The notes under the pieces: generated by a model
What the model saw: only the letters and a program-made list of their open reading frames with translations
Database searches by the model: none
Told to the model about the DNA's origin: nothing
Sequence record: PQ382034.1
Reading direction: 5' to 3' (one strand)
From: Acinetobacter phage vB_AbaSI_3
Length of the DNA stretch: 64,000 nt
Shown here: piece by piece, positions 9,146 to 12,297 of the stretch
Numbering within the stretch: the first letter of the stretch is position 1
Layout: every line of letters starts with the position of its first letter
Program-made: the position numbers and the translations under genes

Positions 9146-9220
9146 TGGCAGGCACTGAACGAATCGAACGCTCGTTAATGGGGTTGGAGCCCACTGTAAT
9201 AACCACTATACGAAATGCCT
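9146..9220 (-). tRNA. tRNA-Trp (CCA)
   Basis: hand-folded cloverleaf: 7-bp acceptor with encoded CCA, anticodon loop CTCCAAC, T-loop TTCGATT. Confidence 0.7.
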
Positions 9221-9310
9221 GTGGCGGAAAGCAGTGTAATCGAAACACAACCGAATTAACAGTCCACTCGCTTAGCAGGCGGTGCCAATCACCCTATTGG
9301 ATTACTTTCC

Positions 9311-9586
9311 TTAGAATAAACATAATGATGTGACAAGCCATTGATTTTGGCGTTGTATATTATTGGTGAGGCGGCGAGAACGTTCTTCATCTTCTTTGCG
9401 ACGTTTTTCTCGCTCAGCCTCTTGTCTTGCAATTCTTTTACGTGTCTCTTCCTCAATTGATCGTTCACTATGGCCACTATATCGTGGAAATCCAGTGCTA
9501 TACGAAGGTGAATCAAACCCCGTTCCATTACGCATTGTCATTTCATTCATGCGTCTTGAGAAATCAACATATTGAGAAACGCTCAT
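9311..9586 (-). CDS. hypothetical charged (Arg/Glu-rich) small protein
   Basis: 91-aa ORF between tRNA-Trp and tRNA-Pro. Confidence 0.3.
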   Translation of the reverse strand: MSVSQYVDFSRRMNEMTMRNGTGFDSPSYSTGFPRYSGHSERSIEEETRKRIARQEAEREKRRKEDEERSRRLTNNIQRQNQWLVTSLCLF

Positions 9587-9688
9587 ATTTCCTCCAAGGA
9601 ATATGGTGGAGTGTGATGGAATTGCACCATCCTAATCCTGCTCTTCAGGCAAGCGCTAATCTATCTCAGCTAACACTCCAAAAGTAAA

Positions 9689-9765
9689 TGGTCTCCGTAA
9701 AATGATTTGAACATTTGACCCTATCGTCCCAAACGATATGCTCTACCAGACTGAGCTATACGGAG
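9689..9765 (-). tRNA. tRNA-Pro (UGG)
   Basis: cloverleaf with D-arm GCTCAGTCTGGTAGAGC, anticodon loop TTTGGGA, T-loop TTCAAAT, CCA encoded. Confidence 0.8.
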
Positions 9766-9766
9766 A

Positions 9767-9861
9767 TGGCGGAAGGTGAGGGGAACGATCCCTCAAGGCG
9801 TGTCACCACGCTCGACTGATTTCAAGTCAGCTGCCGTCGCCAGCCATCGGCTTGACCTTCC
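9767..9861 (-). tRNA. tRNA-Ser (UGA), class II with long variable arm
   Basis: anticodon stem-loop gctga/CTTGAAA/tcagt, long variable arm, CCA encoded; T-loop atypical and ends approximate. Confidence 0.55.
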
Positions 9862-10086
9862 AATATTTTTCAATTCTCACTTAAGGCGGAGGAACACCTA
9901 AATTGTCTTGTGTAGAATGTCCTTTTATACTTTCGAGCATTCTACCACTCAATAAGTAAATCTTGAAGTTTAGTACATTTAACGAGTTGATACTTCAACA
10001 AGCTCATAAACAAGACAATAAAAACATGACGACCTAGGAATTTACGCCATTAGGACACCTAGGTCCATTTACGTCATTTTTGAATT

Positions 10087-10163
10087 TGGCTCCCCGCGGT
10101 GGGTTCGAACCACCGACCTCCAGATTAACAGTCTGTCGCTACTACCAACTGAGCTAGCGGGGA
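10087..10163 (-). tRNA. tRNA-Asn (GUU)
   Basis: perfect 7-bp acceptor, D-arm GCTCAGTTGGTAGAGC, anticodon loop CTGTTAA, T-loop TTCGAAC, CCA. Confidence 0.8.
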
Positions 10164-10170
10164 ATAATGT

Positions 10171-10262
10171 TGGAATCACCCGGAGGAATCGAACCTCTCA
10201 CTTCCTTCCCACTTTTTAAGTATCTGCTTAGAAGGCAGATGTGGGGGCGAGCGACATAAATT
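10171..10262 (-). ncRNA. tRNA-like element (T-arm GGTTCGATTCC, UCU-anticodon-like hairpin, no canonical D-arm or acceptor)
   Basis: hairpin tctgc/CTTCTAA/gcaga plus a T-arm and 3' CCA, but no acceptor pairing found. Confidence 0.3.
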
Positions 10263-10269
10263 CTTAAAG

Positions 10270-10340
10270 TTCTGGCACGAGGAATCGAACCTCGGTGACT
10301 GGAGTACAAAACCAGCATAATACCATTATATGACGCCAGA
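10270..10340 (-). tRNA. tRNA-Thr (UGU)
   Basis: perfect acceptor, anticodon loop TTTGTAC, T-loop TTCGATT; CCA not encoded. Confidence 0.7.
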
Positions 10341-10656
10341 ACTTTAAGAACTTTTGATAATATTATTTATACAACCATAAAGGCACCGTCATGACCACTC
10401 ATCAAGAACACAGTGAGTTAAAACTTTTTGTGATGAGATTAATAAGGCCTAATCGAAAACATTTGAACTTTGCTAAATAAAAACTTTGATCTTTAAGATT
10501 TTAGCTTTGAACTTTAGCATTGGGATAATGTACAGGATTCGCGCTTGGGAAACCTATATCATCATCAAAGTTCTATAACCTTAGAAGTTAGCCGGATTTA
10601 GGAATACCGGCTCGAACCCTCTACAGTTTTTGATCATGACGATTAAAATTTACCTA

Positions 10657-11223
10657 TCAGTCGATAACGATTGTAGGATTTGTTTCAGTTAAAATTGCAT
10701 CGAATTCAAGATCGAAGAAATCAATTGTAGATTTGAGCTCATCAATTTGTTCTTGAATTTCCATAATTGTAGGTTTTTCTCGTTTTTCCATTAATTGCTT
10801 GAGCTCATCATCGTGTGCAGCTTTAGACAATTTAACTTCGTAATCACGTTCGATGTTAGCAAATGTAGCACGAGCACTAGCTAGCTCTTTCACTAAACGT
10901 GTATACAAAGCTTTAAGTCGAGGTAAAATATGTGTACGATACGTTAATGCATCGTTGATAGACATTTGTTCTTTGCCTACGGTTACCATCGTTTCAAAAT
11001 TTGCTTTATTGACCTTTTTGCGAAGATCAAATTCTGCATCAAGTTTGTCTTTAATTGATTGTATGTTTTTACGAGATTTGTCAACAAATTCAGCAGTTTT
11101 GATTCCAGTGCTAATCTCTACACCATTACGGAATACACCGCAGAATGTCATTTCACGAAGATTTTCGTCGAAAGACACTTTGTTGCGTTTAAGTGTTACT
11201 AATGCACGAGCGATGGTAGTCAT
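10657..11223 (-). CDS. hypothetical coiled-coil protein (188 aa)
   Basis: ORF between the two tRNA clusters; Lys/Glu-rich heptad-like stretches. Confidence 0.5.
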   Translation of the reverse strand: MTTIARALVTLKRNKVSFDENLREMTFCGVFRNGVEISTGIKTAEFVDKSRKNIQSIKDKLDAEFDLRKKVNKANFETMVTVGKEQMSINDALTYRTHILPRLKALYTRLVKELASARATFANIERDYEVKLSKAAHDDELKQLMEKREKPTIMEIQEQIDELKSTIDFFDLEFDAILTETNPTIVID

Positions 11224-11299
11224 TCAAATTTCCTCTAATCAAAATAATCTTTAATTTATGTAGTTAATTATATAACATAAATCATTAAAAGCCTTTGCT

Positions 11300-11536
11300 T
11301 TACGAATAAGTTTGTGTTGGTTCATAAAATAAACGTTCTTTCAACATTCTGTCGAGCTTTGCAATTGCGGCAGATCGGTTAAGGTACTGTGAACGTTTAT
11401 TTGCACTTTCGGCAATTAAACCAGTTGGTAAATGAGTAACACGTACTGCATTAAAAGGCCGATTGACCCATCGGCGTGCACCACTTGTTCTATACTCATC
11501 AATTCTCAATTCACTAGGTTTGAATGAGTAATCCAT
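11300..11536 (-). CDS. class-I release factor domain-3 (peptidyl-tRNA hydrolase domain)-like mini-protein lacking the GGQ motif
   Basis: ELRIDEYRTSGARRWVNRPFNAVRVTHLPTGLIAESANKRSQYLNRSAAIAKL lines up with RF1 [53 protein letters not shown] from memory; GGQH is replaced by RRW. Confidence 0.6.
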   Translation of the reverse strand: MDYSFKPSELRIDEYRTSGARRWVNRPFNAVRVTHLPTGLIAESANKRSQYLNRSAAIAKLDRMLKERLFYEPTQTYS

Positions 11537-11549
11537 ATCAATATTCTCA

Positions 11550-11792
11550 TTACTTCAATTTAATTTTGGCTTCAAATACGTAGCGATAATTGTTATCACA
11601 TAATATTTCAGCTCGTTCATATGTTGTGGCCATTCGCAATACTGCTCCAGTATATGAAACGATTGCAAAAACACAATCAGTTGAATCCGGTGATGCGATA
11701 TCACCAACTTTAAAACGAAGTTTTCTATAAGTATATTTATCATCATACTTACATAAGAATTTGGCTAAACTTAACGAGAATGTGAATCTCAT
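11550..11792 (-). CDS. hypothetical protein (80 aa)
   Basis: ORF immediately downstream of the upper tRNA cluster. Confidence 0.4.
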   Translation of the reverse strand: MRFTFSLSLAKFLCKYDDKYTYRKLRFKVGDIASPDSTDCVFAIVSYTGAVLRMATTYERAEILCDNNYRYVFEAKIKLK

Positions 11793-11898
11793 AACTTTAC
11801 CGTCTTCGTTAAAAATTCCATAGATGCTTCGTTGAGAAGTTTTATCTATGCAGTTTCGACAGATCTAATGTTTCATATTTTTTCCTCATTAAATTAAA

Positions 11899-11976
11899 TG
11901 GTACATGACCTCGGACTCGAACCGAGAGGCTCTTGTTTCTAAGACAAGAAGGTATACCAATTCCCGTCAGTCATGC
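11899..11976 (-). tRNA. tRNA with anticodon UAG (Leu codon CUA/CUG) but short (class I) variable arm
   Basis: 7-bp acceptor plus CCA, anticodon stem-loop cttgt/CTTAGAA/acaag, T-loop TTCGAGT. Confidence 0.55.
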
Positions 11977-11977
11977 A

Positions 11978-12054
11978 TGGTGGATACTGGGAGTGCTTGC
12001 ACCTCCAATCAACTACGTTGTCCGCTGCTTTACTATTTAAGCTAACAGTACCCA
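11978..12054 (-). ncRNA. degenerate tRNA-like element (acceptor-like pairing plus CCA, D-arm-like hairpin, no canonical anticodon or T-arm)
   Basis: 77-nt block exactly filling the gap between two tRNAs; termini pair GGGTACT/AGTATCC + A + CCA. Confidence 0.25.
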
Positions 12055-12055
12055 A

Positions 12056-12131
12056 TGGAGACGTCGACTGGACTTGAACCAGCATCGTCACGGATTTGCA
12101 ATCCGTCGTATAACCATTCTACCACAACGTC
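12056..12131 (-). tRNA. tRNA-Cys (GCA)
   Basis: acceptor GACGTTG/CGACGTC, anticodon stem-loop acgga/TTGCAAA/tccgt, T-loop TTCAAGT, CCA. Confidence 0.6.
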
Positions 12132-12138
12132 TTAAACT

Positions 12139-12213
12139 TGGTGGGCCCAGGGAATTTCGAAATCCCAACCTTCAGATTATGAGTCTGCTGCTCTGCCTTT
12201 GAGCTATAGGCCC
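12139..12213 (-). tRNA. tRNA with anticodon CAU (Met, or Ile via lysidine as in T4 tRNA-Ile)
   Basis: acceptor GGGCCTA/TGGGCCC, D-arm GCTCAAAGGCAGAGC, anticodon loop CTCATAA, T-loop TTCGAAA, CCA. Confidence 0.7.
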
Positions 12214-12222
12214 ATTTAAATT

Positions 12223-12297
12223 TGGTACTCGTGACCAGAGTCGAACTGGTAACCTAAGACTTTAGAGGTCTCTGCTCTACCATTGAGCTACACGAGT
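12223..12297 (-). tRNA. tRNA with anticodon CUA (amber/UAG-reading suppressor-type)
   Basis: clean hand-folded cloverleaf: ACTCGTG-TA-GCTC-AATGGTA-GAGC-A-GAGAC-CTCTAAA-GTCTT-AGGTT-ACCAG-TTCGACT-CTGGT-CACGAGT-A-CCA. Confidence 0.65.

Follow-up and report, generated by a model that had tools for sequence, protein, structure and literature searches.

A stretch of 64,000 nucleotides (nt) from the Acinetobacter phage vB_AbaSI_3 (record PQ382034.1, referred to below as the window) carries a T4-type tRNA gene island of the genus Lazarusvirus at 9146-12297 on the minus strand, which consists of 10 tRNA genes, two CCA-ended tRNA-like RNAs (B and X) and four small open reading frames (ORFs). Two components of the island are the main subjects of this work: a tRNA with the anticodon CUA, i.e. 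an amber suppressor, and the gene of a 78-amino-acid (aa) protein which, as judged from its sequence and its predicted structure, is a stand-alone domain 3 of a release factor (RF) and lacks the GGQ motif. In a preliminary description of the window these elements had been regarded as a coherent system for the manipulation of translation termination. The parts of such a system are real and they reside together in five lineages, but their coherence could not be shown; the phages fHyAci03 and Ac42 keep the RF-like gene without the tRNA, and no TAG targets could be found. The explanation we favour, tentatively and with somewhat less than even confidence, is a T4-type island in which a UAG suppressor is tolerated and a dead RF domain would act as a competitor at the ribosomal A site, the two persisting independently of each other.

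A release-factor domain without the GGQ motif

The RF-like ORF matches PF00472 (RF-1) at 6.9e-12 and phrog_20323 at 3.3e-20. The Pfam match spans positions 6-71 of the 116-position RF-1 domain, and the best sequence matches among solved structures correspond to residues 231-296 of E. coli RF2. The protein is much closer in sequence to RF2 and RF1 (E about 1e-13) than to ArfB (E about 0.06). In the alignment with RF2 one residue is deleted at the GGQ site and SGARRW stands in place of SGAGGQ (SGAGGQHVN is replaced by SGA-RRWVN); the absence of GGQ, which had been noted earlier for the window, was thus confirmed and extends to all six lineages compared. The AlphaFold2 model (pLDDT 84) consists of three strands and a long helix, and in Foldseek searches it matched domain 3 of RF1 and RF2 in 70S ribosome complexes with TM scores of 0.80-0.87. 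The codon-reading domains 2 and 4 with their PxT or SPF motif are missing, the protein being alignable to domain 3 only, and its C terminus (LFYEPTQTYS) contains no basic tail of the ArfB type. Since the GGQ motif is absent, the protein cannot hydrolyse peptidyl-tRNA, and since both the codon-reading domains and the ArfB-like tail are lacking, it is neither a release factor nor a hydrolase of the ArfB type.

The homologues are 53% (Hadassahvirus), 48% (AB1I1 type), 45% (ZZ1), 37% (Ac42) and 35% (Acj9) identical to the protein of the window. At the former GGQ site SNW is found in Hadassahvirus and in ZZ1, GHY in Ac42, TTW in Acj9 and a shortened loop (TRMN/TCMN) in the AB1I1 type, so that an aromatic residue, mostly Trp, recurs at this place. 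The VRxTHxPTG motif is kept in all homologues and RSQxxN in most of them, only RS being retained in Acj9. The loss of catalysis by the RF domain predates the split of these genera. A basic charge was also considered as a family trait and was rejected, as the net charge spans -3 to +6.

The wider family was explored by an exhaustive HMMER search and a profile search. A further GGQ-less group was found, the members of which are about 160-170 aa long and possess an ASAW motif and a C-terminal extension; they occur in Pseudomonas phage 73 (Septimatrevirus), in Xanthomonas phage NR08 and on related metagenomic contigs, so the GGQ-less domain-3 family reaches phages of Pseudomonas and Xanthomonas. 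ARAGORN detected no tRNA on the two metagenomic contigs with an ASAW-group gene, and no tRNA is annotated in the stretches around the GGQ-less gene of phage 73 and NR08. No description of a GGQ-less domain-3 family was found in the searchable literature. Several records named 'Acinetobacter phage MD-2021a' (CAKLQH02...) proved to be chromosomal contigs of Acinetobacter with prfA, prfB, aceE and other host genes; these mislabelled contigs inflate the 'phage' counts in release-factor searches.

A conserved amber-suppressor tRNA

tRNAs were detected with ARAGORN and with the Rfam model RF00005, which was applied at its gathering threshold of 29 bits and then at a relaxed threshold (E<=1). The tRNA(CUA) listed in the preliminary description is genuine: with 71 bits it is the top-scoring tRNA of the window, and it folds into a class I cloverleaf with A1-U72, the discriminator A73 and an encoded CCA. 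Its anticodon loop, CUCUAAA, is 7 nt long and has a pyrimidine at position 33, the anticodon CUA and a purine at position 37 (in the corresponding tRNA of ZZ1 position 33 is C).

The tRNA is 98.7-100% conserved within Lazarusvirus and CUA tRNAs are also present in Hadassahvirus, in AB1I1-type phages, in ZZ1 and in Acj9, i.e. in five of the six Twarogvirinae lineages checked. When six sequences from these five lineages were compared, compensatory double changes were observed in 12 of the 16 predicted pairs, and the CUAAA core of the anticodon loop was invariant in all six. The compensated pairs together with the invariant core indicate a working suppressor under selection rather than an accident. 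Two different tRNA bodies carry the CUA anticodon at the same locus, type 1 in the window and AB1I1T and type 2 in Maestro, ZZ1 and Acj9. They are about 70% identical, which is no closer than unrelated tRNAs, and the presence of two unrelated bodies at one locus argues for selection on the CUA anticodon itself; on this comparison the suppressor appears to have arisen twice.

The nearest sense tRNA of type 1 is the T4 tRNA-Ile(CAU) (76%), and the acceptor stem of type 2 is common to the tRNA-Ile(GAU) of Acj9. This suggests an Ile-type origin for the CUA tRNAs, the attached amino acid not being derivable from the sequence. In E. coli, the identity rules for amber suppressors are such that U35 and A73 favour Lys or Gln. 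In GenBank the CUA tRNA is labelled 'tRNA-TERM, amber suppressor' in PhaR5 and 'tRNA-Pyl' in Lazarus, Maestro, ZZ1 and Acj9. Two papers devote one line each to it, with 'Sup (CTA)' given for DLP1 and DLP2 (PMC10051250); apart from such passing mentions no functional study of the suppressor was found in the searchable literature.

Stop-codon usage and candidate readthrough sites

The 53 curated genes of the window end with TAA in 36 cases, with TGA in 15 and with TAG in 2. Among 212 crude ORFs from about 151 kb (the window and two segments of the Lazarus genome) the corresponding counts are 131, 67 and 14, at least three of the 14 TAG-ended ORFs being spurious, as they overlie tRNA genes. A 40-kb Acinetobacter contig, mislabelled as phage in the database, served as the host sample for stops and codons; its stops are TAA 24, TGA 3 and TAG 1. 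From these counts UAG is rare in the genomes of both the host and the phage.

All large genes of the window are intact under the standard code, and no real gene in the 64 kb is split by an in-frame TAG. Recoding of TAG was rejected, since the six-frame scan yielded two TAG-joined ORF pairs and both are located inside long annotated plus-strand genes. Readthrough of the TAG codons in the window and in an additional 87 kb from Lazarus would add 1-24 codons, with two longer exceptions. An extension of 74 codons follows a short plus-strand ORF amid annotated minus-strand genes and is probably spurious. In Lazarus, orf218, an ORF of 78 aa, ends with a TAG in frame with alc (8089-8874, minus strand, of a Lazarus segment outside the window), the gene of a host-transcription inhibitor. 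The same in-frame arrangement is seen in Maestro, where a second TAG is present, and in AB1I1T; the stop of orf218 is out of frame in both ZZ1 and Acj9, being TAA in the former. The TAG of orf218 lies within a conserved promoter-like sequence, TTTACA...TATAAT. Programmed readthrough from orf218 into alc was rejected because the junction is not conserved in ZZ1 and Acj9 and the TAG belongs to the promoter-like sequence. Thus no phage gene was found to need readthrough of UAG.

Co-occurrence of the suppressor and the RF-like gene

A census was made of six Twarogvirinae lineages, Acj61 and phage 133 being left out. Both the RF-like gene and tRNA(CUA) are present in Lazarusvirus, Hadassahvirus, the AB1I1 type, Zedzedvirus ZZ1 and Acajnonavirus Acj9, the RF-like gene lying just 3' of the island in the latter two. 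Ac42 possesses the RF-like gene, and tRNA(CUA) is absent from its island. In the Lazarusvirus fHyAci03 the RF-like gene is 100% identical and tRNA(CUA) has been destroyed: the CAU tRNA has been fused with a 5' segment of the CUA tRNA (2829-2896 of the fHyAci03 stretch examined), and this chimera has eliminated both tRNAs, neither of which is detected by ARAGORN. A lineage with tRNA(CUA) and without the RF-like gene was not encountered among those examined. The co-conservation proposed for the two elements therefore holds for five genus-level lineages and fails in fHyAci03 and Ac42, which retain the RF-like gene without tRNA(CUA). The co-occurrence is nested, not strictly coupled, and since the protein is present without the suppressor in fHyAci03, in Ac42 and also in the Septimatrevirus-like loci, which yielded no tRNA in the stretches examined, the two are not an obligate two-part system.

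The tRNA-like RNAs X and B

The two degenerate tRNA-like RNAs of the preliminary description do exist. Each has a 7-bp acceptor stem, a discriminator base, an encoded CCA and a conserved structure, and each is packed between flanking tRNAs; both fall below the cut-off of the Rfam tRNA model, neither of them reaching E<=1.

X is 85 nt long and has no D arm; its T arm is GGUUCGAUUCC, followed by U73 and CCA. The anticodon helix is extended to 11 bp, is interrupted, and is closed by the loop CUUCUAA with the anticodon UCU. Between the acceptor strands lies a core of 66 nt, which is the same in the window, PhaR5, Lazarus and Maestro and has one base changed in fHyAci03. Nine of the ten variable columns are in the acceptor stem, where two pairs show compensatory changes. 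At the site of X a canonical tRNA-Arg(UCU) is found in AC4 (1595-1671 of the AC4 stretch examined), which carries the anticodon arm of X, and in DLP2 the 5' half of X is joined to the 3' half of a tRNA-Arg (about 2309-2393 of the DLP2 stretch examined). The AC4 tRNA and the DLP2 chimera together identify X as a conserved derivative of tRNA-Arg(UCU). By the known identity rules, arginyl-tRNA synthetase should not charge X, which has no D loop and has U73. An exact-pattern scan of IMG/VR for the X core gave zero matches.

B is 76 nt long, with an acceptor stem of 7-8 bp (GGGUACU/AGUAUCC) followed by A73 and CCA. Its D-like arm lacks GG, its T-like arm is closed by the loop UGCAAGC, and a usable anticodon arm is absent. 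The acceptor stem starts with G1-C72, G2-C71 and G3.U70, and the G3.U70 pair is conserved in all eight copies read. G3.U70 is the pair that specifies alanine, and together with G1-C72, G2-C71 and A73 it makes up the classical alanine identity set; B is therefore predicted to be charged by alanyl-tRNA synthetase. It could not be assigned as a tRNA-Ala or a transfer-messenger RNA (tmRNA), as it has no Ala anticodon arm and gave neither an ARAGORN tmRNA nor an Rfam match. B is nearly identical in PhaR5, fHyAci03, DLP2 and ZZ1, while the proteins of ZZ1 at the same locus are only about 45-74% identical; a 101-102 nt variant is found in Lazarus, AC4 and Maestro.

X and B were also compared with rnaC and rnaD of T4, and homology was rejected, only a generic T arm being in common; X and B are thus analogous and not homologous to rnaC/rnaD. 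For tRNA(UAG), X and B no link to termination could be demonstrated.

Other tRNAs and codon usage

The preliminary description had grouped CUA and UAG as anticodons related to stop codons. This applies to CUA, which would read the UAG stop; the UAG anticodon belongs to an ordinary tRNA for the CUN codons of Leu and has no connection with stops. tRNA-Leu(UAG) has a short variable arm (class I) and A73, a near-identical copy is found in AB1I1T, and among the annotated genes of a mycobacteriophage tRNA array there is likewise a tRNA-Leu(tag), of 76 nt.

It had further been suggested that the stop-related anticodons next to the RF-like gene look like a coherent system and not like a compensation for codon usage. 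Relative to the host sample the phage over-uses ATA (4.5x), AGA (4.1x), ACA (2.1x), AAT (1.9x) and TCA (1.6x); CTA (0.88x) is not over-used, nor are CCA, TGG and TTC. The Ile, Thr and Ser tRNAs match the over-used A-ending codons AUA, ACA and UCA, and AGA is matched in those phages where the canonical tRNA-Arg(UCU) occurs. Enriched codons thus explain a part of the tRNA set, as in T4.

tRNA(CAU) is most likely a tRNA-Ile2 that reads AUA after lysidine modification. It is annotated as tRNA-Ile in PhaR5 and Lazarus, and its C4-G69 and C5-G68 pairs, which resemble those of T4 tRNA-Ile, are known as a signal for this modification. In tRNA-Phe(GAA) the GG of the D loop is missing and the T loop reads UGCAAUU in place of UUCGAAU; B shares this odd pairing (D loop without GG, T loop UGCAA). 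tRNA-Phe(GAA) was overlooked by ARAGORN and is annotated as tRNA-Phe in PhaR5 and Lazarus; tRNAscan-based annotations of relatives mark it as a possible pseudogene. At the site of tRNA-Asn a non-canonical GUU element is present in Lazarus, Maestro, fHyAci03 and ZZ1.

Weighing the explanations

In the explanation favoured here, the tRNAs would be cut from polycistronic transcripts and a host synthetase would charge tRNA(CUA), perhaps with Lys or Gln, as suggested by the E. coli identity rules for U35 and A73 and by the Ile-type bodies of its nearest relatives. The charged tRNA would then compete with RF1 at UAG and give rise to partial readthrough. This would be tolerated, as UAG ends about 5% of the phage genes and back-up stops follow within 1-24 codons nearly always; that host proteins become extended would not matter to a lytic phage. 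The dead RF domain would dock at the A site and peptidyl-transferase centre of the large subunit, in the manner of domain 3 of release factors, and would compete there, without hydrolysis, with RF1, RF2 or rescue factors. The suppressor and the RF-like gene would be old co-residents, which could reinforce each other and of which each persists alone.

Several points weigh against this explanation. No expression, charging or readthrough data for these phages were found in the searchable literature, and the benefit of amber suppression to a phage with the standard code is left without explanation. The RF-like gene diverges much faster (35-53% identity) than the neighbouring ORFs (61-79%), and such fast evolution would fit a host-interaction or anti-defence protein equally well as a ribosome ligand. 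With the range of net charges in the family, RNA binding is no obvious common property; an isolated domain 3 may bind ribosomes weakly, and the basic C-terminal tail which ArfB requires is absent here. Finally, tRNA(CUA) is always accompanied by the RF-like gene, hence there may be a one-way dependence.

The reading nearest to the preliminary description, in which the dead RF domain slows RF1 and RF2 at the peptidyl-transferase centre, tRNA(CUA) reads UAG and late termination is reprogrammed by the coherent module, has in its favour that five Twarogvirinae lineages have both elements within the island or adjacent to it, that the suppressor was never seen without the RF-like gene and that selection for suppression is implied by the existence of two independent bodies of the CUA tRNA; a precedent exists in the 'code-change modules' of recoded phages, which combine a suppressor tRNA with an RF (Borges et al., preprint). 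We nevertheless consider it unlikely, because the window genes contain no in-frame TAG and the sole long extension, orf218-TAG-alc, is not conserved in ZZ1 or Acj9; fHyAci03, having lost the tRNA, keeps an identical RF-like gene, and Ac42 and the Septimatrevirus-like loci have this gene without a suppressor. Besides, domain 3 alone has no codon specificity, and tRNA(UAG), X and B could not be linked to termination. A two-part device within a standard-code genome, where the dead RF domain would occupy the A site of the peptidyl-transferase centre and hold off RF1/RF2 while tRNA(CUA) decodes UAG and extends host and/or phage proteins, B and X being possibly further effectors directed at ribosomes or synthetases, seems to us less probable still.

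The anti-defence island is a serious rival, although we rate it as no likelier than the coherent module. According to this explanation the phage tRNAs would stand in for, or outlast, host tRNAs that anticodon nucleases cut, X, B and perhaps tRNA(CUA) would be decoys or substrates, and the dead RF would be a decoy or inhibitor of a translation-targeting host defence or of an RF-binding enzyme such as PrmC. It would account for the many non-canonical RNAs of the island (the loops of tRNA-Phe, the class I tRNA-Leu(UAG), the odd tRNA-Asn of relatives and X, with nothing but the anticodon arm of tRNA-Arg(UCU)) and for the fast divergence of the RF-like gene relative to its neighbours. The adjoining gene, Acb1/57B, is an anti-CBASS gene, T4-type tRNA-repair enzymes, namely PseT (polynucleotide kinase), RnlA (RNA ligase A) and Rnl2 (RNA ligase 2), are encoded in the Lazarus genome, and phage tRNAs that evade tRNA-targeting defences have been published (PMC10264068, PMC11464382, PMC11555353). 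However, PADLOC found no match for the island ORFs, a CUA anticodon cannot replace any sense tRNA, and codon enrichment already accounts for the Ile, Thr, Ser and Arg tRNAs. We also know of no defence system which targets release factors or CUA-type tRNAs, and this counts against the anti-defence reading. A decoy for PrmC was judged unlikely in a lytic phage, where release factors methylated before infection would persist.

It is very improbable that these elements are neutral leftovers, i.e. that tRNA(CUA) is an accidental anticodon mutant of a duplicated tRNA, the RF-like ORF a decaying piece of a captured prfB and X and B tRNA pseudogenes formed by recombination that homing endonucleases drive. 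Recombinant and chimeric tRNAs do arise in the island, fHyAci03 is viable after the loss of tRNA(CUA) and the type 1 suppressor resembles the neighbouring tRNA-Ile(CAU), all of which speaks for such a view. But the RF-like ORF is intact in six lineages in spite of 35-53% identity, with its core motifs kept and Trp recurring for GGQ; the CUA tRNAs keep the full cloverleaf through 12 compensated pairs, the core of X is invariant and its acceptor pairs are compensated, and B is nearly identical between Lazarusvirus and ZZ1 despite about 45-74% protein identity at the locus.

Comparison with known systems

Like the T4 tRNA cluster (8 tRNAs, rnaC, rnaD and segB), the island is situated by 57B, 57A and gene 1, its tRNA genes are co-oriented and tightly packed, and homing endonucleases (in relatives) and extra tRNA-like RNAs accompany them. 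The T4-like position had been recognised correctly, as the island adjoins 57B and the gp1 deoxynucleoside monophosphate (dNMP) kinase gene. The statement that the content is unlike that of T4 did not hold: Pro(UGG), Ser(UGA), Thr(UGU) and Ile(CAU) are common to the eight tRNAs of T4, and so is Arg(UCU) in relatives. T4 differs in having neither a suppressor tRNA nor an RF-domain gene, and it has no homologue of any of the island ORFs at this locus.

The code-change modules of stop-recoded phages combine a suppressor tRNA with RF1 or RF2, and in some cases also with an aminoacyl-tRNA synthetase (Borges et al., preprint, 10.1101/2021.08.26.457843). The island resembles them in that a suppressor tRNA adjoins an RF-derived gene in a low-GC genome with rare TAG stops. 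In contrast to those modules, the standard code is used here and no in-frame TAG occurs, the RF part is a single domain of 78 aa without GGQ which cannot be catalytic, and no synthetase was seen, unlike in some of the modules. Small proteins built on RF domain 3 are also known in ArfB/YaeJ and ICT1, and the RF-1-domain genes of mycobacteriophages sit inside tRNA arrays (PMC5966550). All of these differ from the present protein in retaining GGQ ('GGKGGQ' in the mycobacteriophages), and ArfB has a basic C-terminal tail in addition.

A release-factor relative which has lost catalysis and has been kept for another role has a precedent in PrfB3. This Arabidopsis chloroplast protein reportedly has no GGQ and acts on the stability of the petB transcript, as Stoppel et al. 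are said to have described in 2011. PrfB3 is a homologue of PrfB1 acting at the petB 3' untranslated region (review PMC10504595). Unlike the phage protein, PrfB3 is a full-length RF2 relative of a eukaryotic organelle.

The features themselves are already known, being annotated in GenBank and mentioned in two papers. What seems new is that the GGQ-less family and the tRNA-like RNAs are conserved and that the suppressor has a dual origin; none of these points was found discussed in the searchable literature. Suppressor tRNAs in standard-code phages are usually seen as curiosities or as steps to recoding; here a suppressor is kept across a subfamily of therapeutically used A. baumannii phages. 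If either element altered termination in the infected cells, a lytic phage would thereby reshape host translation in a new manner, and phage engineering would be affected, as amber-codon containment or schemes for non-canonical amino acids would leak.

Layout of the island

The window belongs to a T4-like Acinetobacter phage (Straboviridae, Twarogvirinae, genus Lazarusvirus). Over 9000-12500 its identity with Acinetobacter phage PhaR5 is 99.2%, and with about 40 further T4-like phages of A. baumannii, of the same genus, it is 94-99%. ARAGORN found nine tRNAs, all on the minus strand (Trp CCA, Pro UGG, Ser UGA, Asn GUU, Thr UGU, 'Leu' UAG, Cys GCA, CAU and CUA). At the gathering score Rfam confirmed eight tRNAs of ARAGORN and added the tenth, tRNA-Phe(GAA), with a match at 9607-9679; the UAG tRNA and the class II tRNA-Ser were also recovered at the relaxed threshold. 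The order of tRNAs and ORFs is as had been listed previously, apart from tRNA-Phe(GAA), which had been overlooked between tRNA-Pro and the 91-aa ORF.

Table 1. Features of the tRNA island and its flank, in the direction of the minus strand for the island (positions of the window)
Feature	Position	Strand	Evidence or remark
gp1 dNMP kinase	13647-14384		adjoins the island, as in T4
57B homologue	12966-13421	minus	Pfam Acb1, 3.6e-48
Upstream hairpin	12303-12350	minus	20-pair stem
tRNA(CUA), amber suppressor	12223-12297	minus	Rfam 71 bits, ARAGORN anticodon cta
tRNA(CAU)	12139-12213	minus	ARAGORN, Rfam
tRNA-Cys(GCA)	12056-12131	minus	ARAGORN, Rfam
tRNA-like RNA B	11978-12053	minus	sequence and minimum-free-energy fold
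tRNA-Leu(UAG)	11899-11976	minus	ARAGORN; Rfam 33.9 bits
80-aa ORF	11550-11792	minus	phrog_29342
RF-like ORF, 78 aa	11300-11536	minus	PF00472, phrog_20323
188-aa ORF	10657-11223	minus	phrog_1491
Non-coding spacer, 316 nt	10341-10656	minus	between 188-aa ORF and tRNA-Thr
tRNA-Thr(UGU)	10269-10340	minus	ARAGORN, Rfam
tRNA-like RNA X	10171-10255	minus	sequence and fold
tRNA-Asn(GUU)	10087-10163	minus	ARAGORN, Rfam
Terminator-like hairpin and U run	10026-10077	minus	read from sequence
tRNA-Ser(UGA), class II	9767-9861	minus	ARAGORN, Rfam
tRNA-Pro(UGG)	9689-9765	minus	ARAGORN, Rfam
tRNA-Phe(GAA)	9604-9679	minus	Rfam 49.1 bits
91-aa ORF	9311-9586	minus	ORF list
tRNA-Trp(CCA)	9146-9220	minus	ARAGORN, Rfam

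The island is a mosaic, and relatives are distinguished by whole-gene swaps, by chimeric tRNAs such as those of fHyAci03 and DLP2, and by Seg/HNH homing-endonuclease genes, which are inserted in the islands of several relatives. Recombination at arm sequences common to the tRNAs reshuffles it. The 57B homologue next to the island gave a strong match to Acb1, an anti-CBASS phosphodiesterase; a known anti-defence gene thus borders the tRNA island.

Among the remaining ORFs, that of 80 aa matches phrog_29342 at 1.2e-45 and shows 74-79% identity in Maestro, AB1I1T, ZZ1 and Acj9. The 188-aa ORF (61-77% identity across four lineages) matches phrog_1491 at 1.7e-35; no support was found for the 'tail fiber protein' label of this family, the Pfam matches being weak and of coiled-coil type only. 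The 91-aa ORF had no significant Pfam or PHROG match; with its counterpart in Maestro it shares 41% identity. None of the island ORFs matched the PADLOC defence models, and no Rfam family was obtained at E<=1 for X, B or the spacers.

The terminator-like hairpin that follows tRNA-Asn carries a U run 3' of its stem. The stem CCUAGG/CCUAGG is changed to CCUAAG/CUUAGG in fHyAci03 and ZZ1, which is a compensatory change, and by its position the hairpin appears to divide the island into two transcription units. The 316-nt spacer is kept in Lazarus and DLP2; it includes the T-loop-like sequence GGGUUCGAGCC and stem-loop fragments which resemble further tRNA remnants. Directly upstream of tRNA(CUA) another hairpin is located, which has three G-C pairs in its 20-pair stem (G-T pairs being permitted in the scan). 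It coincides in part with the terminator of the gene before it and may serve in processing or regulation.

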